Source of the DNA: Spirochaetaceae bacterium
GTDB lineage: Bacteria > Spirochaetota > Spirochaetia > DSM-2461
Length of the DNA: 64,000 bases
Assembly: GCA_051531975.1 (NCBI GenBank)
Contig: JAOPTT010000009.1
Span: 320,001-384,000 of the forward strand
Direction of reading: 5' to 3'
Shown here: one piece after another, positions 6,444 to 49,645 of the stretch
How the letters are laid out: each line of letters starts with the position of its first letter
Position numbering within the stretch: the stretch's first letter is position 1
Position numbers and translations under genes: made by a program
The notes under the pieces: generated by a model
Databases searched by the model: none
What the model was told of the DNA's origin: nothing
The model's input: the letters and a program-made list of their open reading frames with translations, nothing else

Positions 6444-6609
6444 GTAATAATTGTATGGCTGGCAAACTTAAACGGACAAGAGCCAAAATGCAGTGTTTTA
6501 TGTCAAAAAACTCATAATGTAAAAGTTTAAAAGTATCAAAAAGCAAAGATGCAGGATAATAATTAAAGATTCTCTTTGCCTGCAGTATTTCTTGATCTAT
6601 GATTAAAAT

Positions 6610-33675: not shown

Positions 33676-33679
<4 letters not shown>

Positions 33680-34569
33680 GACTTCTCCTTTTTAAAAAAT
33701 CCCCAGAAAACAAGCTGAACTATGCTAATTATTAATATTATTAATAATAAAACAATACCAACTGCAGACCCCATTCCTAAATCACCAGATTGAAACCCTT
33801 TTCTATATACATAACCAACCATTGTTAAACCAATATTATTAGGAGAATTTCCTCCCCACAAGATGTAACTCTCTTCAAACATAGAAAATCCACCTAATAT
33901 ACTTATAGTAGTCACAAAAATAATAATTGGTTTTAATAGAGGGAGTGTTATTATACGAAATTTTTGAAAAATATTCGCTCCATCGATATCAGCGGCTTCA
34001 TATAACTCATGGGGTATTGCTTGTAGCCCTGACATAAAATAAACTATATTAATTCCTGTCCAACGCCATAAAGCTGTGATTACAAGTAAAAACATGGCAT
34101 GGTACCTACCAGCCATCAACCAAGACTGAGGTTCCAAATTAAACTTTAACAGTATAGAGTTTATAAATGCACTATCCGATGAGGCAAAAAGTAATCTAAT
34201 GACTGTTCCGGCAACAACAACTGATATTAATGAAGGGATAAAAAATATTGATCTAAATATCTTGCTACCTGCAAAATTATTACTATTTAATATAGTTGCA
34301 AATATGATTGGTATCGGGATTAAAACTGCAATTGTTAATACTGTGTATATAAATGAATTTTTTATAGCAATAAAAAAATGTTCATCATTTAATTGACTAT
34401 AATTTTCTAAACCTATAAACGTTACTTCTCCTGGTACTATATTTTGAAAGCTCATAATAATAGTAGAAAGTAATGGATATAGATAAAAAATAAAAAATGA
34501 AAAAATAAATGGTGCGACAAAAACATAGGGAACTATATCACGCTGCAATTTATTTGATCTTTTTATCAT
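33676..34569 (-). CDS. araP: Arabino-oligosaccharide ABC permease
   Basis: 'PYVFVAPF', 'WRWTG.N', EAA 'ELYEAADIDGA'. Confidence 0.85.
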
Positions 34570-34627
34570 TGTTACCACCTCAAATTAGAAAAGTACCCCT
34601 TTTAATAAGGGATACCTTATATATATT

Positions 34628-35926
34628 TTAATTTCTTATTTTATCTGCAGCATCTTTTAATGCTTGTGCTGGGGTTTTAGATTGATCACCTAAAGCTTGG
34701 AACATAACATCGTGTTTTATTAAATCCGAAAGTTCTGGTAAGTCAGATGTAATTGTTACAGGATTTATTTCGTCTTTTACTTCTAAAAGAATGCTAAAAA
34801 TATCATCATTTTGAAAGTATTTAGTAAATTTATTTTCTGCTTTTAAAGCTTCATCATTCCATACGGACCATCTTGGAGGATCAAATCCAAGAACAGACCA
34901 AAGTTCAATATTACTTTCCTCTGTTAATTTAGCAAAAGCTAGGAAGTCTTTAGTAATTTGTACATCTTCTGCTTGTTTTGTAACAACTGTAGCTGTTCCA
35001 CCCATACCAGCAGATCGTTTTCCACCTTTCTCCCAACTTGGAAGAGGTTTAATAACAATTTTACCTTCTAGTTCTGGCATGTAATCTGTAAATCGACCCA
35101 TGTACCACATTGGCATAAGTATTGAAGCATAATCTCCAGCGTTCATAGCACCATAATATTCCTCTGAATGATGAAATCCACCAGGCGCTGCTTCAGCAAT
35201 TTTGTTTTTATATATCATATCGTGTAAAAACTCTAAAGTACTGATATTCACACTATTATCTAATGCAACACTTCCATCGGTGTTGAAAAAGTCGGAATTA
35301 CGCTGAGAAATCATTGGCCAGAAAGTCCATTGATCAGTTGTCTCTACAGTTGTCATTAGTTTGCCAGTTACTGACTTAACTTTTGCCCCTGCAACTACAT
35401 AATCATCCCATGTTTCTATATCATCTACATTAACGCCGGCAGCAGTTAACAATTCAACATTGTAATACATCACAGCTGCACCTACATGAAATGGAAGTCC
35501 ATAATAGTTATTATCTTTTGAGTAGATTTGATATCTAGATAGAACTAATTCATCTGCAACCGGATCAATATAGTCATTTAGTGCTTCTAACTGGACTTGC
35601 CCTTTTAAATAATTGGGGAATTTACTAATCTCTATATCTGCTAATGCAGGGGCACCTACACCTGATTGCAATGCAATCAATAGTTTATTATGCATATCAT
35701 CGTATGGAAATGTTTCTGCCATCAATTCTATTTGTCTATCAGGATTTTCAATGTTCCATCTTTCTGCAGCAGCTTCATAAAATTGCTGATGTAATTCATT
35801 AAAAGTCCAAAATGTTACCTCTTGTGCTCCAGTTGCACTAGTACTTTCTTTTTGACCATTACCAAACATAGTAGTTGATAAAAGTAATAATAAAAAAATT
35901 ATTACTAATTGTTTCAAGTTGTTCAT
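34628..35926 (-). CDS. araN: Arabino-oligosaccharide-binding protein
   Basis: 'FWTFNELH', 'PYDDMHNKLLIALQSGVGAP', 'MPMWYM', 'SAGMGGT', 'LGFDP'. Confidence 0.88.
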   Translation of the reverse strand: MNNLKQLVIIFLLLLLSTTMFGNGQKESTSATGAQEVTFWTFNELHQQFYEAAAERWNIENPDRQIELMAETFPYDDMHNKLLIALQSGVGAPALADIEISKFPNYLKGQVQLEALNDYIDPVADELVLSRYQIYSKDNNYYGLPFHVGAAVMYYNVELLTAAGVNVDDIETWDDYVVAGAKVKSVTGKLMTTVETTDQWTFWPMISQRNSDFFNTDGSVALDNSVNISTLEFLHDMIYKNKIAEAAPGGFHHSEEYYGAMNAGDYASILMPMWYMGRFTDYMPELEGKIVIKPLPSWEKGGKRSAGMGGTATVVTKQAEDVQITKDFLAFAKLTEESNIELWSVLGFDPPRWSVWNDEALKAENKFTKYFQNDDIFSILLEVKDEINPVTITSDLPELSDLIKHDVMFQALGDQSKTPAQALKDAADKIRN

Positions 35927-35951
35927 AACTTCTCCTTAAAATTGGTATGCA

Positions 35952-36132
35952 TATCACATATTCGGGTATGTATCATATATTATGATCATAAAAAGAATGT
36001 GTCAAGCTAAATTAGTTGCAAGAAGGTGTTTTAAGATGTTTATGGTTGGAATTATGTATATTTAGGCTTTTTGTATATCATGAAATATGATATGGTGTGG
36101 TTAGTTATAGTATGTTATCATAATAACTAATA
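35952..36132. promoter_or_regulatory. araN promoter and repeated TATCA-N7-TGATA-like operators
   Basis: Minus-strand TTGACA(36005)-17-TAATAT. Boxes: TATCAcatattcGGGTA (35952), TATCAtatattaTGATC (35971), TATCAtgaaataTGATA (36076), TATCAtaataacTAATA (36116). Confidence 0.65.
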
Positions 36133-36158
36133 TGGTATACTTTTTAAGTGAGGGAATC

Positions 36159-37076
36159 ATGAAAGGTAAAATAATGCTTATCGATCCTATTAAGGATCTA
36201 AATATAATTAAAGGCTTAGGTTCTGAAATTAGAATAAAAATTCTTAATGAACTAAGACATGGAGAACAGAATATAAATGACCTAGCATCATTATTAGATC
36301 TACCACAATCAACAGTGGCAACCAATATTATCACTCTTGAAAAGGTCGGTCTTGTATCCTCTGAAATAAAAAAAGCAACAAAAGGAAATCAAAAAGTTTG
36401 TAAAAATAACTTTGATGAATATATTATCTCTTTTCAAGATGAAAAGAGTGTTGATAACGAGTCCATTGTTGTTGATATGCCAGTGGGTTTATTTATAGAA
36501 TATGATATATTAGCACCGTGTGGTATGTGTACATCACGAAAAATTGTAGGTTTTTTGGATACACCGGAATCATTTCTTGAACCAGAAAGAATTAGTGCTG
36601 GTCTTTTATGGTTTGAAAAAGGCTTTGTAAAATATCAATTCCCTAACAATTCAATAAATAAAAAAAAGAAAGTTAAAAAACTAGAAGTTATGGTAGAACT
36701 CTCATCAGAAATTCCTGGTACTAACGATAAATGGCTATCTGACATAACCCTTAATATAAATGAAAAAGAAGTAGGGACATGGACAAGTCCTGGAGATTTT
36801 GGAGACAAAAGAGGTAAATACACTCCAGAGTGGTGGAAACTAGAAGGATCACAATATGGCCTTTTAAAAACATGGACAATATCAGAAGAAGGCTCATTTG
36901 TTGATGGGAAGGCTATTTCAAACTTAACAATTGACGATTTAGAATTAGATCTGCATCACTCTATAAAAGTGAAATTCGAAGTAAAAGAAGATGCCGAGAA
37001 TGTTGGAGGTATTAATATCTTTGGAAAAGGTTTTGGTAATTATAACAATGATATTAAACTAATTTTATCATTTTAG
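36159..37076 (+). CDS. ArsR-type HTH regulator with large C-terminal domain (arabinan-locus associated)
   Basis: wHTH 'RIKILNEL…NINDLAS.LDLPQSTVATNI..LEKVGLV'; C-terminal 'PCG', 'WTSPGDFG..RG..TPEWW', 'GGINIFG..FGNY'. Confidence 0.85.
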   Translation: MKGKIMLIDPIKDLNIIKGLGSEIRIKILNELRHGEQNINDLASLLDLPQSTVATNIITLEKVGLVSSEIKKATKGNQKVCKNNFDEYIISFQDEKSVDNESIVVDMPVGLFIEYDILAPCGMCTSRKIVGFLDTPESFLEPERISAGLLWFEKGFVKYQFPNNSINKKKKVKKLEVMVELSSEIPGTNDKWLSDITLNINEKEVGTWTSPGDFGDKRGKYTPEWWKLEGSQYGLLKTWTISEEGSFVDGKAISNLTIDDLELDLHHSIKVKFEVKEDAENVGGINIFGKGFGNYNNDIKLILSF

Positions 37077-37085
37077 GAGACGGAT

Positions 37086-38420
37086 TTGAACTTAATACAC
37101 ATATATAAAGACTTTGCAGACTCTACTAAATATCTTTTTGTATGTAACAACTTATATGCAAATATGTTAACAAATTTTAAAGATTTTATTTCAGACAGAT
37201 CTATCTTCATAATTAATGATGAAAATACTAAGGTTGCTGCAGGTAATGAATTTATAGAGTTTTGTAAAAAAAACAGTATAAAAGTAAACTCAGAATATAC
37301 TTTCAAAAATATCCCTGAACTTGATGCTTCATATAAAAATGTCGAAATTTTAAAGGAATCCTTATCTAAAACAGATTCCATACCAATAGCAATTGGTAGT
37401 GGAACAATAAATGATTTAGTAAAACGTGCATCATTTGAATTGAATAGAAAATATGGAATTATAGCTACTGCGGCCTCAGTTGACGGGTATGCCTCAGATG
37501 GTGCAGCTATTTTATATAACGGTTTAAAGCAGACTATGCCATGTCCAGCTCCAGAATTTATAGCTGCAGATCCAAAAGTTTTAATAGATGCTCCTATAGA
37601 ATCTAGCTCTTCTGGTTATGCAGATCTTTTAGCTAAGAACCCTGCAGGAGCCGATTGGATTCTAGCAGATATAGTAGGTCTTGATAAAATAAATAGATCA
37701 GCATGGAATCTGATTCAGAAAGATCTGCTAAAGTGGACGACAAACCCAGAGAGGTTAGCTCAAAAAGATGAAGTCATTATTTCAGACCTTATGACAGGAT
37801 TAACCGTTTCTGGTTTTGCAATGCAATTAATGAAAAGATCTAGACCAGTCTCAGGAGCAGAGCATCTTATGTCCCATGTATGGGAGATGGAAAATTTAAT
37901 GTTTAATAACAAACATGTTTCCCACGGTTTTAAAGTTGCTATTGGCTCACTTTCGAGCGTTGCTTTAATGGAAACTATCTTAAATATAAATATATATGAT
38001 TTTGATATAGATAGTGTTATAAAAAACTGGCCTACTTGGGATGTTAGAAAACAAGAGATAATTGATGATTTTTCAGATTTAAATGATATTGAAAATCTAC
38101 TCACTATTAACAAAGAAAAGTATATAAAAAAGGACCAACTATATAAGAGACTTCTGGATATAGTAAATAACTGGGAACATATAAAGTTTGAAGTTAATAA
38201 ACATCTACTACCGTATAAAGAGTTAAAATATAGATTGTTTAAAGCTGGTTGCCCAACTTTACCACAAGATATTGGGTTAACAAAAAGTCACATATTAAGA
38301 ACTTATAAAAAAGCAGGTATGTTAAGAAATAGGTATACGATATTAGACTTTGTTTATGAAATGGGTTTAATGGATAACTGTTTAGAATCTATTTCAAAGT
38401 CAGATATCTATCTAAACTAA
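37086..38420 (+). CDS. araM: sn-glycerol-1-phosphate dehydrogenase (AraM/EgsA family)
   Basis: 'AIGSGTINDL', 'TAASVDGY', 'ADW', 'SRPVSGAEH..SH', 'HG.KV'; TTG start after AGGAG. Confidence 0.88.
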   Translation: MNLIHIYKDFADSTKYLFVCNNLYANMLTNFKDFISDRSIFIINDENTKVAAGNEFIEFCKKNSIKVNSEYTFKNIPELDASYKNVEILKESLSKTDSIPIAIGSGTINDLVKRASFELNRKYGIIATAASVDGYASDGAAILYNGLKQTMPCPAPEFIAADPKVLIDAPIESSSSGYADLLAKNPAGADWILADIVGLDKINRSAWNLIQKDLLKWTTNPERLAQKDEVIISDLMTGLTVSGFAMQLMKRSRPVSGAEHLMSHVWEMENLMFNNKHVSHGFKVAIGSLSSVALMETILNINIYDFDIDSVIKNWPTWDVRKQEIIDDFSDLNDIENLLTINKEKYIKKDQLYKRLLDIVNNWEHIKFEVNKHLLPYKELKYRLFKAGCPTLPQDIGLTKSHILRTYKKAGMLRNRYTILDFVYEMGLMDNCLESISKSDIYLN

Positions 38421-40240
38421 TTAGTATTACAAGGTATTAGGATTTTAAAACGACAACCTCCCTCTGGCCTATTACTAGCATAAATTTCACCACTGTATTT
38501 TTTAATAATTCCATAAATTACAGATAGACCAAGTCCCATATTGTGTTCATTTTTTTTCTTTGTTGAGAAGAAAGGTAAAAATATATCCTTTGAATACTTT
38601 TCATCTATACCTGTTCCACTATCGTCTATAATTATACATGCATTATTATCCTCTATATCTGTGTGTATATTTATAGTTCCCCCATTTGGCATTGCTTCAA
38701 AACTATTTTTCATTAAATTAAGAAAGACCTGTTTCATCTCATTTCGGCTACTATGAATAAAAAGCTCATCTACAGCTTTATTAAATATTATTTTAATTTT
38801 TTTATGTTTTGCATTAAACCTAATTAAATTAATCAGACTCACAATAAGATCATTAAGATCATAATATTCTAGGGATGAATTGTTGTTATCTGAAAATGAG
38901 ATCAGATTACTCACAATAACTTTAATATCGTGTAATTCCTCTTCTATTTCAGAAATAATTTCCCGGTGTTCTTTGTTTTTTGTACCCATGTTCAGATAAT
39001 TCAGATGGTTATATATTATTTCTAGGGGGTTATTAATTTCATGAGCTACACCAGCTGCTAATAACCCAACAGAAGCTAATTTTTCAGATAAGTTAATCTG
39101 TTCTCTCAATTTTTCTTGTTCAGAAATATCTTCAAATATAATTATATTTCCAATTAAAAATGCACCATCGTATATAGGGAAGGTCTTAAAGTTTATTATC
39201 TTCATCTCTTCTAATAGAGTAAAAGGAATATTATAACCAGAGGACTCTTTTTTACCTATAAATGCATTGTGTAAATCATTTAAAAGGGTTGTGTTTTTTG
39301 AATCTAATAATACTTCTAAATTCTTCCCTCTTAAGTTTTGTCCGCTAATATTAAAAAACTTTTTTGCTGTTTGATTTATTAGTTTTATATTATTTGCATC
39401 ATCTGTAACTATTAGATTTGTTGGAAGTTGTTGTAATATAGCTTCATTATATTTTAGTAGTTGATAAAACTCTTTACTGGTATTTGTTAACTCTTCATCA
39501 CTATTTAACTGAGAATGGCATAATTTAATCAAATTTAATCGATCTATATTATTAACCGAGTCTGTAATAAAAATTTGACCACTTCTTAATATAGAAAAAG
39601 TATGGGCAAAGTTATAGATATCATCTATTTTATGGGATAGACAAAGTATAGACATGTTATCTTTGATTTCATTTTTTAAAAGAGAGGTGATTTTTTTTAA
39701 ATCTGTACCGGATAATTTCTCAAGAGACTCATCCAAAATTAGTAATTTTGGTCTCCTAATTAGTGCTCTAATAATATTTATCACTATTTTTTCTGATAAA
39801 TATAGGTCTTTATACAGTCTGGTTGGATCTAAATCTATCCCATACTCTAAAAGAATCTTTTTCGATTCACTTAACATCCCGCTTTTATTAAGTTTAATGT
39901 TGTTCATAAAATTACATGGAGTAAAAAGATTTTCTGCAATTGTAAAGTTATCTATTAAGAAAATGTCCTGATGAACAGTCTGAATACCTAAAGATTGAGC
40001 CTTGGAAATTGATAAAGCATTTAACTTATTCCCAAAAAATATCATTTCACCACTGTTTACAGGTGAATTCCCAGATAAAATCTCCCCTATATATGTTTTC
40101 CCTGAATCGTGGTCTCCAACTATTGCATGTATTTCTCTAGGATATAGGTCTAGGGATAGGTTTTTTATAACATTGTGACTATCCACTATAAGTTCTATAT
40201 TGTCCAACTGTATAATTGGCTTTAATTTATGATATTCCAT
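38417..40240 (-). CDS. Soluble histidine kinase with N-terminal sugar-ABC ATPase-like domain and PAS domain
   Basis: N-term 'EIHAIVGDHDSGKT', 'VHQD', 'TIAENL', 'LLILDE', 'LSHKIDDI', 'ILRSG'. PAS 'ILQQLPTNLIVTD...INQTA'. H-box 'AAGVAHEINNPL', N-box 'QVFLNLMKNS', G1 'DSGTGI', F 'PFFSTK', G2 'GLGLSV'. No TM segment. Confidence 0.92.
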   Translation of the reverse strand: MEYHKLKPIIQLDNIELIVDSHNVIKNLSLDLYPREIHAIVGDHDSGKTYIGEILSGNSPVNSGEMIFFGNKLNALSISKAQSLGIQTVHQDIFLIDNFTIAENLFTPCNFMNNIKLNKSGMLSESKKILLEYGIDLDPTRLYKDLYLSEKIVINIIRALIRRPKLLILDESLEKLSGTDLKKITSLLKNEIKDNMSILCLSHKIDDIYNFAHTFSILRSGQIFITDSVNNIDRLNLIKLCHSQLNSDEELTNTSKEFYQLLKYNEAILQQLPTNLIVTDDANNIKLINQTAKKFFNISGQNLRGKNLEVLLDSKNTTLLNDLHNAFIGKKESSGYNIPFTLLEEMKIINFKTFPIYDGAFLIGNIIIFEDISEQEKLREQINLSEKLASVGLLAAGVAHEINNPLEIIYNHLNYLNMGTKNKEHREIISEIEEELHDIKVIVSNLISFSDNNNSSLEYYDLNDLIVSLINLIRFNAKHKKIKIIFNKAVDELFIHSSRNEMKQVFLNLMKNSFEAMPNGGTINIHTDIEDNNACIIIDDSGTGIDEKYSKDIFLPFFSTKKKNEHNMGLGLSVIYGIIKKYSGEIYASNRPEGGCRFKILIPCNTN

Positions 40241-41555
40241 ATTTTTCCAACTTATTATACAAGGTTTTTCTACTAATTTTTAATATTTCAGAAGTTCGTT
40301 TTTTATTATTACCAGTCTTTTGTAAAGTTTTAATTATCAGATTTTTTTCGTTATCTTTTATAATATCAAAGCTGTTTGTAAATTCTTTTTTTCCTAGAAA
40401 AGAGGGTGGTAGTTCATTTAGATCAATAATAGAGTTTGTGCAAATTGCGGCAGCATAGTTGACTATATTTTTTAGTTCCCTAATATTCCCTCTCCAATCA
40501 TTTTCCATCATTGATGATAAAAAGTCATATGTGTATTTTAGCTCTGTAGTACCATTATCTTTTTTAAATTGCTCTAGAAAATGATCTACTAATAGTGGAA
40601 TATCATCTTTTCTCTCCCTTAAGGGAGGTATATATAAAGTTGCAGTGGATAATCTATAATATAGATCTTCTCTAAACTGATTTTTCTTAATTAATTCTTT
40701 TAAGTCCTTATTTGTTGAGGCTATAAATCTAACGTCAATTATTGTCGTTGTTTCAGAACCGATTGGGCGTATTTCACTATTTTGAAGAGTTCTTAATATT
40801 TTAGCCTGGGTTTGTAGAGACATATCTCCTATTTCGTCTAATAACAGGGTTCCACCATTTGCTTTCTCAAAGACCCCTTTATATTTGTTATGAGCCCCAG
40901 TATAAGCACCTTTTTCATGACCAAAAAGTTCATTGTCTAATAAGTTTTCTGGGAACGCTGAACAATTTATTTTAATGATTTTTTGTCCACTTCGTAAGGA
41001 GTTATTATGAATGTATTCGGCTAACCCTTCCTTGCCTGTTCCACTTTCCCCTTGTATTAAAATTGGGAAATCCGTAGTAGATAACTTTTTTGCTTTTAAT
41101 AAAATATCTGTAATTAATTGATTTTCACTTATAATTTGAGGAGACAGGACTTTTACTTTCTGCTTAAGGTTACTATTCTCTATATTAAGTAACCTCATCT
41201 TAGAAGCATTTTCTACAATAATTAATAATTTATTAAACTCTAATGGCTTTTGGATAAAGTCAAATGCACCTAACTTAATAGCTTCCACTGCTATCTCTAT
41301 AGTTCCAAAACCGGTAATCATAATTACTGGAAGATGAAAATCATAATCTTTTATCTGTTTAAGAAGTTCAATACCATCTTCATCACCTAGTGCAACATCT
41401 AATAAAACAACATCGGGATGACTATTTTTTAATTCAATTAGACTTTCTTCACTATTTGTTTTATATGAAACACTGTACCCTATGTGTTCAAAATTTCTAC
41501 AAAGACTTTTACATAGTTTGATATTATCATCTATTATTAAAATTGACTTTTTCAA
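40227..41555 (-). CDS. sigma54-dependent NtrC/AtoC-family response regulator
   Basis: REC 'ILIIDD…LLDV…MITG…FIQKP', AAA+ 'GESGTGKE', 'FGHEKGAYTGA', 'LDEIG', 'FREDLYYRL', 'WRGNIREL', Fis HTH 'ISRKTLYNKL'. Likely TTG start 41555. Confidence 0.95.
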   Translation of the reverse strand: MKKSILIIDDNIKLCKSLCRNFEHIGYSVSYKTNSEESLIELKNSHPDVVLLDVALGDEDGIELLKQIKDYDFHLPVIMITGFGTIEIAVEAIKLGAFDFIQKPLEFNKLLIIVENASKMRLLNIENSNLKQKVKVLSPQIISENQLITDILLKAKKLSTTDFPILIQGESGTGKEGLAEYIHNNSLRSGQKIIKINCSAFPENLLDNELFGHEKGAYTGAHNKYKGVFEKANGGTLLLDEIGDMSLQTQAKILRTLQNSEIRPIGSETTTIIDVRFIASTNKDLKELIKKNQFREDLYYRLSTATLYIPPLRERKDDIPLLVDHFLEQFKKDNGTTELKYTYDFLSSMMENDWRGNIRELKNIVNYAAAICTNSIIDLNELPPSFLGKKEFTNSFDIIKDNEKNLIIKTLQKTGNNKKRTSEILKISRKTLYNKLEKYGIS

Positions 41556-41558
41556 AGT

Positions 41559-41610
41559 TGTTACCTTTTTACACATAAGGACTGTGTACCTATGTGTAAA
41601 ATTTATACAC
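41559..41610. promoter_or_regulatory. Candidate upstream activator sites for the sigma54 regulator
   Basis: Two TGT-N11-ACA dyads: TGTTACCTTTTTACACA (41559) and TGTGTAAAATTTATACAC (41593), about 95-145 bp upstream of the -24 box. Confidence 0.55.
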
Positions 41611-41703
41611 CCACCCAGAGTATCTGTCAAATAAAATATAGTAAAAACGTTAAAACCGGTATATATTGGTGTTTCAGGTATCTTTTAGTATTATTTACAA
41701 TTT

Positions 41704-41719
41704 TGGCACAGCAATTGCA
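41704..41719 (+). promoter_or_regulatory. sigma54 (-24/-12) promoter of ytfQRT-yjfF
   Basis: TGGCAC-agcaa-TTGCA, exact consensus with GG-N10-GC spacing. Confidence 0.9.
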
Positions 41720-41755
41720 TTTAGGTAGACAAACAATATTTCAAAGGGGAATAAA

Positions 41756-42721
41756 ATGAACAAAATGTTAAAAACATTAGCTACAGTGTTAATGGTGGTT
41801 ATGTGTCTACCAGGTCTTTTTGCTAGCAGTCAAAAAGAAGATGATGGGAAAATTGTAGTAGGTTTCTCACAAATTGGTTCCGAAAGTGCATGGAGAGTTG
41901 CAAATACTGAATCTATCACAAGTGAAGCGAAGAATAGACCAAACATTGATCTAAAGTTTTCTGATGCTCAACAGAAACAAGAAAATCAAATTAAAGCTTT
42001 ACGAACTTTTATTGCACAGGGTGTAGATGTAATAGCATTCTCTCCAGTTGTTGAGACAGGTTTTGAGTCTGTTTTAATAGAAGCAAAAGAAGCTGGGATT
42101 CCTGTAATTTTAACAGATAGAGCTGTTGATGTTAAAGATGATTCTCTGTGGGTTTCTTTTATGGGTTCTGACTTTGTTGAAGAAGGAAGAAAAGCTGCAA
42201 GATGGTTAATAGAAGAAGGTCATACAGATGTTAATATTGTTGAACTTCAAGGTACTGTTGGATCTGCTCCAGCAATAGACAGAAAAAACGGTTTTGAAGA
42301 AGTTATTAAAAGTGAACCTGGAATGAAGATTATTAAAACTCAAAGTGGTAGCTTTACAAGAACTGGTGGAAAAGAGGTTATGGAAGCTTTCTTAAAAGCT
42401 GAAGGTGATAATATCCAAGTTCTATATGCACACAATGACGATATGGCGATTGGTGCAATTCAAGCAATCGAAGAGTATGGTTTAATACCTGGCACTGACA
42501 TTATAATAATCTCTATTGATGCTGTAAGAGGCGCATTTGAAGCTATGGTTGATGGTAAATTAAACTGCACTGTAGAATGTAGTCCACTACTTGGACCTCA
42601 GTTATTTGATGCTGTTGAGGCGTTAATGAGAGGTGAAGAGATTCCTAAAAGAATTGTTACAGAGGAAAGTATTTATCCACAATCTGTTGCTGCAAGCACA
42701 ATTGATAGCAGACAGTACTAA
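41756..42721 (+). CDS. ytfQ: Sugar (galactofuranose-type) ABC binding protein
   Basis: 'VGFSQIGSESAWR.ANT', 'DAQQKQENQIKA', 'FSPVVETG', 'AHNDDMA', 'VECSP..GP'. Confidence 0.88.
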   Translation: MNKMLKTLATVLMVVMCLPGLFASSQKEDDGKIVVGFSQIGSESAWRVANTESITSEAKNRPNIDLKFSDAQQKQENQIKALRTFIAQGVDVIAFSPVVETGFESVLIEAKEAGIPVILTDRAVDVKDDSLWVSFMGSDFVEEGRKAARWLIEEGHTDVNIVELQGTVGSAPAIDRKNGFEEVIKSEPGMKIIKTQSGSFTRTGGKEVMEAFLKAEGDNIQVLYAHNDDMAIGAIQAIEEYGLIPGTDIIIISIDAVRGAFEAMVDGKLNCTVECSPLLGPQLFDAVEALMRGEEIPKRIVTEESIYPQSVAASTIDSRQY

Positions 42722-42735
42722 TAAAGGAGATATAA

Positions 42736-44268
42736 ATGCCTGATTCTAAAGCTGAACAACACCAGCTACTGGAAATCAGGGGTTTGAGTAAGAGCTTTCC
42801 AGGTGTGAAAGCTCTTCAATCTGTTGATTTCACCCTAAGGTCTGGAGAAATCCACGCCTTAATGGGTGAAAATGGAGCAGGTAAATCAACCCTGATAAAA
42901 GTACTGACTGGTTTACATAAAAGAGATAGTGGAACAATATTGATGAATGGACAACCATTTGAGTCTTCATCACCACTGGACGCATCACTAAAAGGAATAA
43001 GCACTGTATATCAGGAAGTCAACTTAGTACCAAACCTCTCTGTAGCAGAAAATATATATATTGGAAGACAGCCTACTAAAAGAGGTTTAGTTGATTGGAA
43101 AACAATGAATAACAAAGCCCAGGAAGCCTTAAAAAAACTGGATCTAGATATTGATGTTACAGAGCAGTTATCTTCCTACTCCATGGCAATTCAGCAGATG
43201 ATTGCGATTGCAAGATCTCTTGATATAGACGCTAAGATTTTAATACTGGATGAGCCAACATCAAGTCTAGATCAGGCTGAATGTAAGCAGTTATTCCTTA
43301 TTATGAATAAATTGAAAGTAAATGGCATGGGAATTATTTTCATAACTCATTTTCTTGATCAAGTTTATGAGAACTCAGACTATATTACAGTTTTAAAAAA
43401 TGGACAATTTGTAGGAGACTACCCTATAGAAGAATTACCTAAGATAAAACTTATTTCTAAAATGCTTGGTAAAGAAATTGAGGATATAGGTGATTTATCG
43501 ATCAAGCGTAAAACAACTTATAAAATCGATAGTAAAGAACTTATGAATCTAGAAAATATTGAGCGTAAAGGCGTTTTACATAAACTGAGTATGGATATTA
43601 AAGATGGAGAAATACTTGGACTTGCAGGACTATTAGGTTCTGGTCGAACTGAACTTGCAAAAATACTGTTTGGTATTGATAAACATACAAGTGGATATAT
43701 CAATATCAACGGAAACAAAGTACATCTAAACTCACCAAAAGCTGCAATATCAAACTCAATAGCTTTTTGTCCTGAAGATAGAAAAACAGAAGGGATAATA
43801 CCGGATCTGAGTGTTAGAGAAAATATTGTTCTCGCTCTCCAGGCAAGATATGGAGTTTTTAAAAGTTTATCAAAATATGATCAAGACGGAATTTGCAATA
43901 AATATGTTAAGCTTCTTAAAATTAAAGTATCTGGTTTAGAACAGAAAGCGGGGACTCTAAGCGGGGGGAATCAACAAAAATTAATTTTGGCCAGATGGTT
44001 AGCAATGGATCCAAAACTATTAATCCTGGATGAACCAACTAGGGGCATCGATGTAGGAGCAAAAGCTGAGATTGAAAAAATTATACATAAAATGAGTACT
44101 GAAAATAGATCTGTTCTGTTTATCTCTTCGGAACTAGAAGAGATTACAAGAATATGTTCAAGAGCAGTAATATTGAGAGATAGAAAAAAAATTGGAGAGT
44201 TATATGGTGATGATTTGTCAGCATCAAATATAATGAACCATATAGCTAAAGGAGTTCATCAGATATGA
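42736..44268 (+). CDS. ytfR: Sugar ABC ATPase (tandem NBD)
   Basis: 'GENGAGKST', 'ISTVYQEVNL', 'LDEPTSSLD', 'THFLDQVY', 'LSGGNQQK'. Confidence 0.9.
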   Translation: MPDSKAEQHQLLEIRGLSKSFPGVKALQSVDFTLRSGEIHALMGENGAGKSTLIKVLTGLHKRDSGTILMNGQPFESSSPLDASLKGISTVYQEVNLVPNLSVAENIYIGRQPTKRGLVDWKTMNNKAQEALKKLDLDIDVTEQLSSYSMAIQQMIAIARSLDIDAKILILDEPTSSLDQAECKQLFLIMNKLKVNGMGIIFITHFLDQVYENSDYITVLKNGQFVGDYPIEELPKIKLISKMLGKEIEDIGDLSIKRKTTYKIDSKELMNLENIERKGVLHKLSMDIKDGEILGLAGLLGSGRTELAKILFGIDKHTSGYININGNKVHLNSPKAAISNSIAFCPEDRKTEGIIPDLSVRENIVLALQARYGVFKSLSKYDQDGICNKYVKLLKIKVSGLEQKAGTLSGGNQQKLILARWLAMDPKLLILDEPTRGIDVGAKAEIEKIIHKMSTENRSVLFISSELEEITRICSRAVILRDRKKIGELYGDDLSASNIMNHIAKGVHQI

Positions 44269-45323
44269 AAAAAGGATTAAAAATTAAATTTTTAAAGAAC
44301 TTAAAGCCGGATTCCCGATTAGTATATCCACTCATGGCGCTTCTAGCTATCCTTCTATTTAATCTTATTTTTACAGAAGGTTTTTTTCATATAGAAATAA
44401 AAAATGGACACCTTTTTGGATCATTGATTGATATTTTGAATCGAGGGGCTCCAGTAATTTTATTAACTATTGGAATGACATTAGTTTATGCAACAGGAGG
44501 TGTAGATCTATCTGTAGGTGCCGTTATGGCAATCTCTGGGGCTCTTGCTGCTCAGTTGATCAGACCTGACTATGTTAAAGGAATACTTGAATACGGGAGT
44601 CAAACTTCAATAGTGATTGTATTATTAATTCCTATTTTATTATCCATATTATTAGGGTTATGGAATGGTTTCCTTGTAGCATATATAGGAGTACAACCAA
44701 TTATTGCAACCCTTATTTTAATGACAGCAGGCCGTGGAATTGCTCAGTTAATTACCCGTGGGCAAACTATAGTGTTTGAGCATGAACCATTTCAGTTTGT
44801 TGGTAGTGGATTTCTTTTTGGAGTTCCATTTCCAGTTATTATTGTAATAATAATTGCAGTCTTAACATGGTTAATAACTAGAAAAACTTCTTTAGGACTG
44901 TTTATAGAAGCAACTGGATCCAATTCACGTGCCAGTCACTATATGGGATTAAGCGTTAAACTAATAAAATCAATAACTTATGCCTTTTCAGGTTTATGTG
45001 CAGGACTAGCAGGAATAATTGTATGTTCTGATATTAGAGCTGCAGATGCAAATAATGCAGGACTCTTTTTAGAACTGGATGCAATAGCTTCAGTAATAAT
45101 TGGTGGAACTATAAATGGTGGAAGATTTTCAATATTAGGATCAATAATTGGAGCACTGATTATACAAGCTCTATCAACAACTATTATTACAAGAGGTATT
45201 CCTCCACAAGTTGTTCTGGTTTTCAAAGCTTTTATTATTATTATTGTAGCTTTGATACAATCTGAAAAATTACGAGAGAAGATTAAACAACATTTTCCTA
45301 AAGGAGAAAAAAATGAAGCTTAA
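44265..45323 (+). CDS. ytfT: Sugar ABC permease
   Basis: 'GHLFGSLIDIL', 'TGGVDLSVG', 'QPIIATLILM.AGRGIAQL', 'ADANNAGL..ELDAI'. Confidence 0.88.
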   Translation: MKKGLKIKFLKNLKPDSRLVYPLMALLAILLFNLIFTEGFFHIEIKNGHLFGSLIDILNRGAPVILLTIGMTLVYATGGVDLSVGAVMAISGALAAQLIRPDYVKGILEYGSQTSIVIVLLIPILLSILLGLWNGFLVAYIGVQPIIATLILMTAGRGIAQLITRGQTIVFEHEPFQFVGSGFLFGVPFPVIIVIIIAVLTWLITRKTSLGLFIEATGSNSRASHYMGLSVKLIKSITYAFSGLCAGLAGIIVCSDIRAADANNAGLFLELDAIASVIIGGTINGGRFSILGSIIGALIIQALSTTIITRGIPPQVVLVFKAFIIIIVALIQSEKLREKIKQHFPKGEKNEA

Positions 45324-46293
45324 ACTCAACCAAAAGAACATACCTCTTTTTACAACTTTTCTAGTTTTTTTAATTATTTATGCTTCTGGATCAATATTAT
45401 ACAGTGGGTTCTTTTCATTAAGGGTTTTTATTAATTTATTTATAGACAACGCTTTTGTAGGTATAATTGCTGTGGGTATGACTTTTGTTATAATATCCGG
45501 TGGAATAGATCTCTCTGTAGGTTCCTTGGTTGCGTTAACAGGAGTATTAAGTGCAAATTTACTGGCCAATACATCATTAAGCCCTATTTTTGTTATATTA
45601 ATATGCCTCTCTTTTGGTGCTTTATTTGGCTTTACAATGGGATATTTAATACATTATTTAGAGCTACCACCATTTTTAGTAACTCTAGTTGGGATGTTTT
45701 TGGCTAGAGGGTTGTCCTTTGTTATCAGTCTGGACTCTGTTCCAATTCGTGATGAACTATTTCTTAAATTATCACGTATGGCAATCCCACTAGGGAAAGG
45801 TGTCAAAATTCCTTTTATTGCAATTGTCTTTATTTTTATAGTTATACTAGGGGTATATATACTGCATAACACCAAATTTGGACGGAACGTATATGCTATT
45901 GGTGGTAATGAAAAATCAGCTCTTTTAATGGGTTTGCCAATTGGTAAAACTAAAATAATGATTTATACCTTAAACAGTACATTTTGTGCATTAGGTGGAT
46001 TGGTATATTCTATATATACATTGGCTGGTTATCCATTAGCAGGAACAGGTCTTGAACTGGATGTTATTGCTGCAGTCGTTATAGGTGGAACATTATTAAC
46101 TGGTGGAATGGGATTTGTAGAAGGAACATTAATCGGTATTTTAATACTAGGACTTATACAGACAATTATTATTTTTCAGGGTAATTTAAGTTCTTGGTGG
46201 ACCAAAATATTTATAGGAGTTCTTATATCAATGTTTATTCTACTTCAAAGATATTTATCAACTAGAACAATAAAAAAAAAGTCAGATAATTAA
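45313..46293 (+). CDS. yjfF: Sugar ABC permease
   Basis: 'NLFIDNAF', 'SGGIDLSVGS', 'GGNEKSALLMG', 'GTLLTGG', 'SSWWTKI'. Confidence 0.88.
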   Translation: MKLKLNQKNIPLFTTFLVFLIIYASGSILYSGFFSLRVFINLFIDNAFVGIIAVGMTFVIISGGIDLSVGSLVALTGVLSANLLANTSLSPIFVILICLSFGALFGFTMGYLIHYLELPPFLVTLVGMFLARGLSFVISLDSVPIRDELFLKLSRMAIPLGKGVKIPFIAIVFIFIVILGVYILHNTKFGRNVYAIGGNEKSALLMGLPIGKTKIMIYTLNSTFCALGGLVYSIYTLAGYPLAGTGLELDVIAAVVIGGTLLTGGMGFVEGTLIGILILGLIQTIIIFQGNLSSWWTKIFIGVLISMFILLQRYLSTRTIKKKSDN

Positions 46294-46325
46294 TCTATAA
46301 TATCAAAATACCATACTTATTAATT

Positions 46326-46360
46326 AAGAAAGCCACCCTGTTATATAGGTGGCTTCTCTT
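46326..46360. terminator. Bidirectional terminator between yjfF and proS
   Basis: AAGCCACC…GGTGGCTT hairpin with A/T tails. Confidence 0.75.
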
Positions 46361-46379
46361 TTATTTATGTATGAAAATC

Positions 46380-48125
46380 TTAAAGTTTACCAGTAACCCC
46401 AAGTTTCTCTGATTCTATTAGATCTTTTGTATACTGTTGTAATGTCCCTATTAAACCTTCTAAAGGAAGATTTTTATTCTCTTTACCACATCGGGTTTTA
46501 AACTCAACCTCATTTGATTCTAAAGTTTTATCACCTACAATAACTCTTAAAGGAATACCAAAAAGATCGGCGTCTTTAAACTTAGCACCGGCTCTCTCTT
46601 TTTTTCTGTCATCAAATATAACTTCGATTCCAGCTGCTAACATATCTTTATATAACTCTTCAGCTTTAGGTGATGCTTTACTTAAGTTAATTAGATGCAC
46701 ATGGTATGGAGAAACTGACATAGGCCATATAATTCCATTATCGTCGTGGTGTTCCTCTACAATACTTGCTAAAAGTCTACCAATACCAATACCGTAAGAA
46801 CCCATAATTACTGGTTTCTCTTTACCGTCAACATCGTTAAAAACAGCCCCAATAGCCTCAGTATATTTTGTTCCAAGTTTAAAGATATTACCAACTTCTA
46901 CACCTCTAGAGAAGTTTAGTTCAGCTTTACATACAGAACACTTAGCTCCTTGTTCAGCATTTGCAATATCAGTTACAACATTTGCTTTAAAGTCTCTATT
47001 TATTCTAACTCCGGTTAAGTGATAATTTAATCTATTTGCCCCAGCAACGAAGTTTCTATTTTTCTGAATAGTTTCATCAGCAATAATTACGGCATTCTCA
47101 ATTCCTACAGCGGAACCAAATCCTGCAATACAACCATGTGCTTCAATTTCTTCTACTGTAGCGGCTCTTAATTCTTTTGCTTTAATCCCATTTTGAACTT
47201 TAGTTTCGTTTACCTGTAAGTCACCTCTAATCTGAGCAATTACAAATTTTTCAACTTCCTCATGTCCATCTTGGAATGTTCCCATATAAAATACAGCTTT
47301 AACAGTGTCTTTTGCTTCAACATTTAAGAAGTGTGAAACATCCTCAATAGTTTTTGTATCTGGAGTTAAAACTTCTTTTAACTTTTCCTCTTCCTGTTTA
47401 GGAAAAAACTCTTTAGTAAAAGTTGCTACTTCGCTATTTGCAGTATAACCACAATCACATGTAACAAGGCTGTCCTCTCCCATAGAAGTTAAGTACATAA
47501 ACTCATGGGCCATTTTACCACCCATAACACCCATGTCTGAATTAACAGTAATAACTGGAAGCCCACATCTATTAAACATATTAAAATATGCGTGAAAATG
47601 CTCTTCATACTGCTCATCTAATTGTTTCCAGTTTGCAGCAGCAGAATAACTGTCTTTCATTGTAAATTCTCTAACTCTAATTAGACCGGCTCTAGGTCTA
47701 GCATCATCTCTCCATTTTGTCTGAAGTTGATAGATTGTTTGTGGTAATTGTTTATATGATATTATTTCACTTTTCATTAACGTTGCTGCAACCTCTTCGT
47801 GGGTCATGGCTAATACCATATCCCGGCCCCAACGGTCATTAAACTTCGTTAACTCTTTGTCGATTTCGTAGTATCTGTTTGTCTCTTTCCATATATCAGC
47901 AGGATTTATTACAGGCATGGTTATCTCTTGTCCACCAATTTTGTTCATCTCTTCTCTGATAATGTTTTCTATTTTGTTTATTGTACGTTTCGCTATAGGT
48001 AAATAACTATAAATTCCTGCTGCAAGTTGTCTAATAAAACCTGCTCTAACTAAGTACTCAGCACTTGCTGCTTCATCTTTTCCTGTAGGTCGTAAAGTCC
48101 TAGAAAATAACTGACTTTGTCTCAT
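46380..48125 (-). CDS. proS: Proline--tRNA ligase (bacterial type with editing insertion)
   Basis: 'MRQSQLF', 'LAMTHEE', 'RPRAGLIRVREFTMKDSYS', 'EVGNIFKLGTKY', 'MGSYGIG..R', 'GAKFKDADL'. Confidence 0.97.
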   Translation of the reverse strand: MRQSQLFSRTLRPTGKDEAASAEYLVRAGFIRQLAAGIYSYLPIAKRTINKIENIIREEMNKIGGQEITMPVINPADIWKETNRYYEIDKELTKFNDRWGRDMVLAMTHEEVAATLMKSEIISYKQLPQTIYQLQTKWRDDARPRAGLIRVREFTMKDSYSAAANWKQLDEQYEEHFHAYFNMFNRCGLPVITVNSDMGVMGGKMAHEFMYLTSMGEDSLVTCDCGYTANSEVATFTKEFFPKQEEEKLKEVLTPDTKTIEDVSHFLNVEAKDTVKAVFYMGTFQDGHEEVEKFVIAQIRGDLQVNETKVQNGIKAKELRAATVEEIEAHGCIAGFGSAVGIENAVIIADETIQKNRNFVAGANRLNYHLTGVRINRDFKANVVTDIANAEQGAKCSVCKAELNFSRGVEVGNIFKLGTKYTEAIGAVFNDVDGKEKPVIMGSYGIGIGRLLASIVEEHHDDNGIIWPMSVSPYHVHLINLSKASPKAEELYKDMLAAGIEVIFDDRKKERAGAKFKDADLFGIPLRVIVGDKTLESNEVEFKTRCGKENKNLPLEGLIGTLQQYTKDLIESEKLGVTGKL

Positions 48126-48241
48126 AATAATTATTACCTCTCTTAATCTGTAGCTACACACTTCCATAAGTTTAAAGTAGCTATCATTTAGTCCTATTAA
48201 AATAGCACTATAGAGAGGTATCCGTCAAATTTAATCGGGTA

Positions 48242-49474
48242 TTATATATCCTTTTTTACAAAAATAAGAGATGAGATGCAGTTCTTTTCAACTTTCTCTA
48301 TTGACCACTGTCCTTCATCTGTCTCAATTGTTAAACCAGCAGTTGGAAAGTTACCTATTCGCTCAGTTAAATATCCATTAATTGTTTGTGTTCCCATGTC
48401 ATGGGGTATCTCTAAATCTATTATATCTTCTATGTCGTAGAATGATGAATCTCCGGCAACTTTCCAAGTTTTATTATTAAGTTTTATTATTGGAGCTTCT
48501 TCAAACGTTTCATTTTCATCGTACATTTCACCAAATATTTCTTCTAATATATCTTCTCTGGTTACAATACCATCTAGTCCACCATATTCATCTAATACAA
48601 TAGCTATATTTAACTTCTCAATCTTAAATTTTATAAATAGTTCATTAACCTTATTGCTTCCTGGAACAAAAATAGGTTTATGAGAAAAATCCTTAATAGG
48701 GCGTTTTTTATCCTCTTCGCTTAGCTGAACAATATCCTTAAAAAGTATGATCCCTATAATGTTTTCATCGCTATGTTCAAAGATTGGAACTCTAGATTTT
48801 CCTTCAATTAATAATTCCTGAAAAATATCGTTAACACTGAGACTACCATCCAATCGTATAACATCTGTTCTATGGGTCATTATGCCGTGTATAGGAGTAT
48901 CGTTTATTCTAAATACATCTTTAACCATCTGGGATTCATAATCTTCAACTACACCCATTTTTGTACCAGCTTCAACTAAATTAATTAAACTCTCTTCAGT
49001 TATCTGCTGTTTAGGTTTTTTTACAAAAATCTTAGTTAACTGTGTACTGATAGAGGATATAAAAAAGATAAGAGGTTTAAATAATACAGATAAAACCAAG
49101 ATAAAGTTTATGGTTCTATAACAGATAGATTCACTTTTATCTAAAGCGATCTGTTTTGGTGTAACTTCTCCAAATATCAGGATAAACAATATTAGAGCAC
49201 CTGAGCCAAAACCAATATATGCATTACCAAAAATTCTAATGGTAATCATTGTCGTTAAAGTTGTAGCTGCAATATTTACAATGTTATTACCAATTAATAT
49301 TGTAGTCAGAAGTACCTGAGGGTTATTAATTAGCTTTTCAATCTTTAAGCCACGTTTATGATTTCTTTTAATTAGATTTTGAATCGATGATATAGATAAG
49401 GATGTAAATGCTGTCTCTGTACCTGAAAAAAAACTGGAAAGGATAAGTAGTATACCAAGTGCTATTAGATCCAC
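48242..49474 (-). CDS. CNNM/CorC-HlyC family Mg2+/Co2+ transporter ('hemolysin', DUF21+CBS)
   Basis: 'SSFFSGTETA', 'LIGNNIVN', 'FGEVTPK', 'IMTHR', 'SRVPI', 'VLDEYGG..GIVT.EDILEEIFGE'. Confidence 0.92.
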   Translation of the reverse strand: MDLIALGILLILSSFFSGTETAFTSLSISSIQNLIKRNHKRGLKIEKLINNPQVLLTTILIGNNIVNIAATTLTTMITIRIFGNAYIGFGSGALILFILIFGEVTPKQIALDKSESICYRTINFILVLSVLFKPLIFFISSISTQLTKIFVKKPKQQITEESLINLVEAGTKMGVVEDYESQMVKDVFRINDTPIHGIMTHRTDVIRLDGSLSVNDIFQELLIEGKSRVPIFEHSDENIIGIILFKDIVQLSEEDKKRPIKDFSHKPIFVPGSNKVNELFIKFKIEKLNIAIVLDEYGGLDGIVTREDILEEIFGEMYDENETFEEAPIIKLNNKTWKVAGDSSFYDIEDIIDLEIPHDMGTQTINGYLTERIGNFPTAGLTIETDEGQWSIEKVEKNCISSLIFVKKDI

Positions 49475-49545
49475 GTGGCTCTCTCTTTAATTATTAATCC
49501 CATCGAAAGGGGGTCGGGGTCTTCTGTTGTCACTAATTCGTTCAT
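49465..49545 (-). CDS. Putative leaderless 26-aa upstream ORF (MNELVTTEDPDPLSMGLIIKERATWI)
   Basis: Manual translation. ATG lies 7 nt after a TTGAAT-17-TATAAT promoter; its TAA stop falls inside the first codons of the CNNM gene. Confidence 0.4.
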   Translation of the reverse strand: MNELVTTEDPDPLSMGLIIKERATWI

Positions 49546-49645
49546 AAAAATTATTATAGTGTATCTTTTAGGTAGATTCAATATGTTATTTTAATGATAT
49601 CTTTTAGACAAAAATAGCATATCATATTACTTATAGGAGAAACTC

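Follow-up and report, generated by a model that had tools for sequence, protein, structure and literature searches.

In a 64,000-nucleotide stretch of a Spirochaetaceae genome (GenBank assembly GCA_051531975.1, contig JAOPTT010000009.1, positions 320,001 to 384,000; hereafter, the window) we analyzed a gene for a soluble histidine kinase, in which a single ATP-binding cassette (ABC) nucleotide-binding domain (NBD) of the type found in the N-terminal half of CUT2 sugar-transporter ATPases is fused to PAS, HisKA and HATPase_c domains (Table 1). The kinase forms a pair with an NtrC-type regulator, and this two-component system very probably controls the divergent ABC operon. The best explanation of these observations is, in our opinion, a transporter-coupled two-component system in which the importer is read through the NBD of the kinase, and we give about equal weight to this proposal being right and being wrong. 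As the family as a whole adjoins CUT2 pumps and a sigma-54 regulator, the kinase probably reads the sugar pump, not the sugar itself.

Domain structure and origin of the kinase

The Pfam domains of the kinase are ABC_tran (residues 26-172, E 1e-15), PAS (266-342), HisKA (392-452) and HATPase_c (500-604). Positions 7-245 of the NCBIfam YtfR model, that is, the N-terminal half of its 492 positions, correspond to kinase residues 15-253 (E 1e-33), and for the YtfR, XylG, LsrA, GguA, AraG, RbsA, AlsA and MglA models of the same collection the first 240-250 positions match residues ~8-250 (E 1e-27 to 1e-33). The AlphaFold2 model, based on an alignment of 120 homologues, has a mean predicted local distance difference test score (pLDDT) of 78: the score is 80-91 in the NBD (residues 8-233) and below 50 in the linker (234-259), and the PAS, dimerization and histidine phosphotransfer (DHp), and catalytic domains are predicted confidently. 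When searched with Foldseek, the N-terminal third of the model matched complete ABC NBDs, namely, LptB (target-normalized TM-score, TMt, 0.86-0.89), FbpC (root-mean-square deviation 2.2) and 1ji0, and the C-terminal two thirds matched the PAS/LOV kinases 4gcz (E 1.5e-24), ThkA and ZraS, the top match of the PAS domain itself being the LOV/PAS kinase YF1 (4gcz).

No membrane segment was observed in the kinase, the highest Kyte-Doolittle 19-residue mean being 1.26 and falling within the PAS sheet, and neither an extracytoplasmic ligand-binding domain nor flanking membrane helices were found by Pfam, AlphaFold2 or hydropathy. Residues H400, N508, N512, D540, G542, G569 and G571 are invariant across the 120 homologues. 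The kinase has the H-box histidine, the N-, G1- and G2-boxes and the adjacent cognate regulator that characterize the NtrB/AtoS-like HisKA class. The NCBIfam AtoS model covers residues 257-606, but its score (237 bits) is far below the cut-off of 646 bits, and hence the kinase is not AtoS.

The preliminary description of this locus, made without database searches, had claimed a kinase comprising an NBD, PAS, HisKA and HATPase_c and lacking a transmembrane or periplasmic sensor, and Pfam, NCBIfam, AlphaFold2 and hydropathy agree on that. The claimed likeness of the first ~245 residues to the N-terminal half of a CUT2 ATPase is borne out by the YtfR alignment, and the motifs listed there are all present in the translation: GDHDSGKT, HQD (as VHQD), LYLSEK in the place of LSGGQ, LLILDE, ESLEKL and SHK (as LSHK). 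Compared with the Walker A pattern GxxGxGK[ST], the sequence GDHDSGKT retains the lysine and the threonine and has an aspartate for the glycine in the fourth position, while LYLSE and SLEKL conform neither to the ABC signature nor to the SALD D-loop, respectively.

The same pattern is seen throughout the family. Motif frequencies were calculated for 107 kinase NBDs, 69 N-halves and 69 C-halves of the ATPases, 33 of the C-halves being cut out by position and not by a domain hit. In the kinase NBDs K48 (98%), Q91 (98%), D170 (100%), E171 (94%), H203 (84%) and N104 (88%) are conserved; K48 is at 98-100% across the sets of kinase NBDs and G45 at 76%. The [FL][TS]VAEN[LI]F segment past the Q-loop, which contains N104, is also retained. 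Vice versa, the signature consensus of the family is L-x-L-S-D-R, the D-loop region reads A-L-E-K-L for P-T-S-A-L with the Pro-Thr after Walker B gone, and the Walker A residue Asn44, present in 100% of the ATPases, is replaced by histidine in 92% of the kinase NBDs. The N-halves of the CUT2 ATPases have the consensus Walker A lysine, Q-loop glutamine, Walker B glutamate and H-loop histidine with a weak signature LS[VI][AG]QQQ, and their C-halves have GxGRTE, glutamate for the Q-loop glutamine and serine for the H-loop histidine together with a perfect D-loop and the signature LSGGNQQ, found in 100% of the C-halves. Among the 57 N-half columns conserved in at least 80% of sequences, 26 keep their residue in at least 70% of the kinases. 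In a more diverse set of 25 kinases the H-loop histidine is missing in ~10 and the Walker B glutamate in three. These frequencies suggest that the kinase NBD has kept nucleotide binding, that hydrolysis is dispensable, and that canonical ATP-sandwich dimerization is unlikely.

In a quick maximum-likelihood IQ-TREE run on 75 NBDs, 28 kinase NBDs formed a single group (Shimodaira-Hasegawa-like approximate likelihood ratio test, SH-aLRT, 100) joined to the ATPase N-halves (support 89), with the C-halves set apart (100). Thus, the simplest history would be one ancient capture of an N-half-type NBD, with PAS-HisKA-HATPase_c occupying the place of the C-half.

The locus, the family and its genomic neighbours

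At the window locus the regulator frame and the start of the kinase overlap by 14 nt, and the ABC operon (41756-46293, plus strand) is divergent from this pair. The longest open reading frame (ORF) of the regulator comprises the Pfam domains REC, Sigma54_activat and HTH_8; its true start is probably the ATG at 41576 (M19). The locus has all features expected of an NtrC-family sigma-54 system: REC, an AAA+ domain with GAYTGA, a helix-turn-helix (HTH) domain, a -24/-12 promoter, and rpoN encoded in the same genome (C13:137711-138187). The inverted repeat upstream of the promoter is a plausible candidate activator-binding site; similar half-sites were observed upstream of the ABC operon in two related loci (L118 and L135), where palindromes of the CACATA/TGTGTAA type are common with the window. 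The scans of 38200-46500 for sigma-70 promoters and terminators were uninformative (58 against 42 expected and 4 against 3.3 expected, respectively), and no RNA dataset was present among the sequencing runs listed as containing window DNA.

The neighbouring NtrC-type regulator, the perfect sigma-54 promoter before the sugar operon and the intact two-NBD ATPase of the latter were all described previously and are all confirmed here. Of the names ytfQ-ytfR-ytfT-yjfF given to the operon, that of YjfF stands, as it passes the NCBIfam cut-off (431 against 363 bits), whereas YtfQ (383 against 510), YtfR (680 against 850) and YtfT (373 against 535) are best hits below the cut-off. The four models are equivalogs for the subunits of a galactofuranose importer; with only one of them passed, the names do not establish the transported sugar.

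Table 1. Features of the window locus and orphan permeases of related loci (coordinates preceded by L refer to metagenome loci; all others, to the window)
Feature	Position	Strand	Basis and remarks
NBD-PAS-histidine kinase, whole gene	38417..40240	-	ORF, 607 aa, soluble; Pfam, hydropathy
Single ABC NBD of CUT2 N-half type and linker start, residues 1-255	39476..40240	-	Pfam, NCBIfam, AlphaFold2, Foldseek, tree
PAS domain, residues 260-372, after low-confidence linker 234-259	39125..39463	-	Pfam, AlphaFold2, Foldseek
DHp (HisKA, phospho-acceptor H400) and catalytic HATPase_c, residues 373-604	38429..39124	-	Pfam, invariant residues
NtrC-type sigma-54 response regulator (REC, AAA+, HTH_8; GAYTGA loop)	40227..41630	-	Longest ORF; Pfam
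Inverted repeat TTTTACACATAAGGAC / GTACCTATGTGTAAAA	41567..41601		16-nt arms; ~100-135 bp upstream of the -24 element
Sigma-54 promoter TGGCAC-N5-TTGCA	41704..41719	+	Pattern match; 37 nt before the ytfQ-like start 41756
YtfQ-like periplasmic sugar-binding protein (Peripla_BP_4)	41756..42721	+	Pfam, NCBIfam
YtfR-like CUT2 ATPase, two NBDs: consensus N-half; C-half with GSGRTE Walker A and LSGGNQQ	42736..44268	+	Pfam, NCBIfam
YtfT-like permease (BPD_transp_2)	44265..45323	+	Pfam, NCBIfam
YjfF-like permease (BPD_transp_2)	45313..46293	+	Pfam; above NCBIfam cut-off
Orphan BPD_transp_2 permease	L137:10323-11363		
Orphan BPD_transp_2 permease	L143:11846-13024		
Orphan BPD_transp_2 permease	L152:3722-4729		
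Orphan BPD_transp_2 permease	L157:4951-6051		
Orphan BPD_transp_2 permease	L172:2046-3008		
Orphan BPD_transp_2 permease	L181:10373-11335		
Orphan BPD_transp_2 permease	L182:7946-8908		
Orphan BPD_transp_2 permease	L183:11811-12773		
Orphan BPD_transp_2 permease	L184:8405-9397		
Orphan BPD_transp_2 permease	L206:11822-12976		

The flanking genes (33676-38420 and 46380-51178) give no hint of the sugar either. These are, on one side, genes for a CUT1-type permease and an SBP_bac_1 protein (33676-35926), an ArsR-type HTH protein (36132-37076) and an Fe-ADH_2-like protein of 444 aa, convergent on the kinase (37086-38420), and, on the other side, for a prolyl-tRNA-synthetase-like protein (46380-48167), a CNNM/CBS/CorC protein (48242-49474) and a GH20 hexosaminidase (49646-51178). 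The window contains a second two-NBD CUT2-type ATPase (21190-21891, minus strand; C9:341190-341891; a 513-aa frame), with no fused kinase seen beside it.

The fused architecture is widespread. All of the best 120 database relatives (43-74% identity, 593-646 aa) carry PF00005, HisKA and HATPase_c, and the named sources of such relatives are Spirochaetales, Treponema, Spartobacteria, KSB3/Moduliflexus, Vecturithrix and Desulfomarina. A full-length fused match was found in 14 of 401 sampled genomes of the phylum, the window's genome included, hence the distribution within the phylum is patchy. A scan of genome contigs with kinase-core patterns retrieved mostly generic kinases, with fused forms in 6 of 80 loci. 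The window's genome (5.46 Mb in 29 contigs) encodes three fused kinases, the other two being 30% identical over the whole length and situated outside the window: G000:C9:282469-284271 (L089:9437-11281) and G000:C3:76851-78524 (L090:11789-13585). No description of an ABC-NBD histidine kinase fusion was found in the full-text literature, the search having a scope that excluded subscription journals and bioRxiv supplements, and the domain-count papers that it retrieved give tables of Pfam domains only; the family is apparently both large and unstudied. The ESM Atlas contains clusters that may represent other NBD-kinase architectures, namely, ABC_tran+HisKA+GAF_2 (a representative of 852 aa, 166 members) and ABC_tran+HisKA+HATPase_c (826 aa, 64 members); these clusters are commonest in Actinomycetota (feature score 0.83).

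We observed a nearly constant genomic context of the fused kinases. The 27 genome loci (not independent of each other, as several share a genome or a genus) contain 28 genes for fused kinases; ABC importer genes occur in the locus of 27 of these genes, and a regulator gene is adjacent to 27, the 28th being cut by the contig end. In addition, 79 metagenome loci were collected with an alignment of the NBD plus linker. The regulator is directly upstream in all 65 of these with enough flank, and a permease or an ATPase of at least 400 aa is present in all 23 loci with two long flanks and in 44 of the 47 where one flank or both are long. The three exceptions are L190, L192 and L153, the last with a binding protein and a fragment of an ATPase. 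Eighteen metagenome loci have no ABC component; 16 of them, all except L190 and L192, are either short contigs or loci with little flanking sequence. In the window's genome all three fused kinases lie within 6 kb of a CUT2 ATPase, although there are 17 CUT2-type two-NBD ATPases and only 4.1% of the genome is within 6 kb of one; both paralogues are preceded by a sigma-54 regulator, and next to each of them are genes for a BPD_transp_2 permease, a two-NBD ATPase and a binding protein. Thus, of the outcomes that the preliminary description held to be damaging to its idea, neither a fusion confined to this assembly nor a general lack of permease neighbours among the homologues was observed, and the architecture and neighbour searches that it proposed both gave the answer it had anticipated.

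The family is not strictly tied to CUT2, as the kinase of locus L130, cut by the contig end, adjoins an importer of the LIV/HAAT type (L130:853-5823), which consists of a Peripla_BP_6 protein, two permeases of the BPD_transp_2 family and two ATPases that are single; a sigma-54 match is located at 5845(-). L120 is the only one of the 27 genome loci without ABC genes; there, genes for a LacI-family protein, an FGGY kinase, a class II aldolase/epimerase and an L-arabinose isomerase follow the kinase (L120:11153-16130), and a sigma-54 match at 7314(-) faces the gene for an Ig-like/ice-binding-like protein (4804-6564). At the locus of the first paralogue (L089) a chemoreceptor (MCPsignal) gene follows the CUT2 operon and the kinase has an AraC-type regulator as its neighbour; at that of the second, a 407-aa ORF without a Pfam match at E <= 1e-5 (L090:9449-10672) lies between the binding-protein and ATPase genes. 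In L175-L178 the 'ATPase' frames of 728-837 aa overlap the binding-protein gene, which is probably due to a long upstream open frame and not to a real fusion.

The genome loci (484 kb) contain 16 strict matches to the sigma-54 pattern TGGCA[CT]-N5-TTGC[AT], the metagenome loci (887 kb) contain 37, distributed over 30 of the 79 loci, and the window's genome (5.46 Mb) contains 26. The density in the fused-kinase loci is thus ~7 to 9 times higher than in the window's genome, this estimate being approximate, as the base composition differs between the sources. The majority of the strict matches precede the first ABC gene at a short distance and in the same orientation, and a version with one mismatch precedes the binding-protein gene in both paralogous systems and in the related locus L118.

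Possible coupling to the importer and its alternatives

Very probably, the NtrC-type regulator, whose gene immediately precedes that of the soluble kinase, is phosphorylated by the latter and, together with sigma-54, activates the divergent ytfQRT-yjfF-like operon from the promoter at 41704-41719. The kinase, having no ligand-binding ectodomain, would sense the importer via its N-terminal NBD, descended from the N-half of a CUT2 ATPase. The NBD retains both the nucleotide-binding side (the Walker A lysine, Q-loop glutamine and Walker B aspartate) and the Q-loop/helical-subdomain segment, which faces the permease in ABC importers, and is devoid of the motifs clamping two NBDs around ATP (the signature and the D-loop); therefore, its likeliest contact would be the cytoplasmic coupling loops of the permease dimer. 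A kinase dimer would sit on some of the YtfT/YjfF dimers, replacing YtfR or competing with it, and docking of sugar-loaded YtfQ would change the conformation of the permease, the signal passing through the NBD, the linker, PAS and DHp to the kinase activity. For this, the transporter would have to be present at a basal level, and the induction would be self-reinforcing.

Two observations hint at a contact with the permease, the first of them concerning the permeases themselves. In 10 of the 79 metagenome loci an orphan permease gene, without an ATPase of its own, is convergent with the kinase at the 3' end of the latter. In eight of the ten it is additional to a complete ABC operon; in the remaining two (L152, L172) the upstream flank is missing. 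The orphan permeases form three separate groups in a FastTree phylogeny, each beside the operon permeases from the same loci, and are paralogues of the operon permeases; in L181-L183 there is a sigma-54 match at the 5' end of the orphan gene. These permeases could be dedicated partners of the kinase. A more specific version of the coupling, which we advance only tentatively, is that kinase dimers take the place of the ATPase on some of the permease dimers to yield a non-transporting receptor, the permease serving as the transmembrane module of the kinase; it is just as tentative that a dedicated orphan paralogue is the partner in some lineages.

The second hint comes from a comparison of pairwise distances in 51 non-redundant modules (Spearman correlation, 500 permutations, six cross-comparisons between the two-component system and the transporter). 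For the NBD and the permease, rho was 0.20 (2 of 500 permutations as high), the only significant value among the six; the permease correlations of the kinase core and of the regulator were 0.07 and 0.09, respectively.

Several observations weigh against the proposed coupling. The value of 0.20 is low, was obtained from sequences that are related to each other, and is one out of six tested. All cross-correlations are at most 0.20, whereas the parts of the two-component system correlate among themselves at 0.79-0.85 and those of the transporter at 0.37-0.64, which means either that modules have exchanged partners or that the distances have reached saturation. In windows of 25 columns rho varied between 0.03 and 0.25 with no peak at the permease coupling loop GGNxxAxRLSGINV; none of the solved structures matches the YjfF-like permease by sequence. 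As for the NBD itself, Walker A Gly45 is substituted in 24% of the family, including the window's kinase (Asp), and the residue after the Q-loop glutamine, glutamate in 93% of the N-halves, is changed. The orphan permeases could be simply second transporter subunits. Finally, L190 and L192 show no ABC genes in ~9 kb on one side, L120 has LacI and araB/araD/araA-like genes with no ABC genes within 9 kb, and PAS is the most variable domain of the kinase (mean identity 0.32, compared to 0.38 for the NBD, 0.41 for the catalytic domain and 0.49 for DHp).

The latter would be expected if PAS binds different cytoplasmic ligands. As the main alternative, the kinase might be a cytoplasmic sensor, whose PAS domain has the imported sugar or a catabolite as its ligand, while the NBD senses nucleotides (ATP/ADP, the energy state) or is purely regulatory, without any contact with the transporter, so that the adjacency would reflect only regulation of the operon by the two-component system. 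The divergence of PAS across systems with different transporters, the retention of nucleotide-binding residues along with relaxation of the catalytic ones (E171 and H203), the weak co-diversification of the kinase and the transporter, and the position of L120 beside catabolic genes are all consistent with such a sensor. We nevertheless consider it rather improbable: PAS domains are variable in general, and it would leave unexplained why the NBD is always of the CUT2 N-half type, why the partner is almost always an importer of the BPD_transp_2 type, and why orphan permeases occur at the 3' end of the kinase in three lineages.

Alternatively, the kinase NBD could pair with an NBD of the transporter ATPase, be it YtfR or a single-NBD ATPase, and sense its turnover, that is, the flux. 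As the Walker A/B side of the kinase NBD conforms to the consensus but the signature is absent, a competent ATP site would require a partner supplying LSGGQ, such as single-NBD ATPases or the C-halves, whose signature is universally intact; the distances of the NBD and the C-half are weakly correlated (rho 0.09, p 0.08). However, the correlation with the N-half is 0.04, the motifs lost family-wide on the kinase side (the signature, the D-loop, and Pro-Thr after Walker B) are those involved in contacts between NBDs, which disfavours pairing with YtfR, and most partner ATPases are single chains whose own two NBDs are already paired. Hence we regard NBD pairing as quite unlikely and favour docking of the kinase NBD on the permease, the docking itself being plausible from the pattern of retained and lost motifs. 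We also considered whether the kinase supplies the missing N-half to single-NBD ATPases and rejected that: the ATPases of ~250-280 aa in L122 (= L202), L129 (two) and L205 are fully canonical, with Walker A, Q-loop, LSGGQ, Walker B and H-loop.

That the fusion arose through faulty assembly or a recent accident, or that the gene is decaying, can be practically dismissed, given the open frame, the relatives from several named lineages, the invariant catalytic residues of the kinase and the fact that 97% of the sampled words of the stretch occur in one DNA run, possibly the source sample itself; misassembly is ruled out by the architecture shared by the best 120 homologues and by the presence of three paralogues, with a separate regulator and CUT2 operon for each.

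Comparison with known systems

In the PstSCAB-PhoU-PhoR and MalK-MalT systems the state of an ABC importer ATPase is relayed to the regulator of the same regulon. The relay is carried out by separate proteins (PhoU, the regulatory domain of MalK), with no fusion between an NBD and a kinase. With the CUT2 (TC 3.A.1.2) ATPases RbsA, AraG, XylG, MglA and YtfR, the fused kinase shares a homologous N-terminal NBD in the first 250 residues, and differs from them in having PAS-HisKA-HATPase_c for the C-terminal NBD, in the loss of the signature and the D-loop, and in the replacement of Asn44 by histidine.

According to the respective publications, the documented routes by which a transporter serves as a sensor are flux sensing of the Bce type (PMC4513084, PMC10314905) and binding-protein-dependent kinases (PMC8050422), the kinase being membrane-bound in both. 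Here, by contrast, the kinase is soluble and a captured transporter NBD is the input. If the NBD does plug into the permease, the conformational cycle of an ABC importer would be directly readable as a signal, and a binding protein, a permease and an NBD-kinase would constitute a modular design of sugar-specific sensors. The non-transporting receptor suggested above, if it exists, would represent a novel mode of signalling across the membrane and would make ABC NBDs a hitherto unrecognized class of input domains in kinases.

In LuxP-LuxQ, XylFII-LytS, ChvE-VirA, TorT-TorS and HptA-HptS, transmembrane kinases bind a binding protein by their extracytoplasmic domain (PMC8050422). Similarly to LuxP-LuxQ-type kinases, the stimulus would come from a CUT2-type (Peripla_BP_1/4) binding protein, and XylFII-LytS also induces a CUT2 xylose ABC operon (PMC8050422). 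Unlike the kinases of the LuxQ, LytS, VirA and TorS types, the window's kinase has neither an extracytoplasmic domain nor membrane helices, and, as it lacks a membrane segment, any signal from the binding protein must cross via the permease. The words ATPase, BceS and PhoU are absent from the text of this review (PMC8050422). A looser analogue described there is GlnH-GlnX-PknG from Corynebacterium, where a binding protein acts through a membrane protein on a soluble cytoplasmic kinase; however, PknG belongs to the Ser/Thr kinases, and the system includes neither an NBD nor an ABC permease, GlnX being a protein of another kind (PMC8050422).

The closest parallel is with the BceRS-BceAB 'flux-sensing' modules of Firmicutes, where, as reported, the membrane protein BceS forms a membrane complex with the peptide-resistance transporter BceAB (PMC4513084, PMC10314905) and contacts between transmembrane helices of BceB and BceS are indicated (PMC10314905). 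In both cases the kinase has no ligand-binding ectodomain, an ABC transporter would act as the sensor, and the operon of that transporter would be induced via the regulator (PMC4513084, PMC10314905). The differences are that the window's kinase is soluble and has an ABC NBD of its own, and its partner is a binding-protein-dependent CUT2 importer under sigma-54 control. With no membrane segment in the kinase and with permeases that are BPD_transp_2 importer subunits, the window system is not a member of the Bce group, although by analogy it may work like a Bce module.

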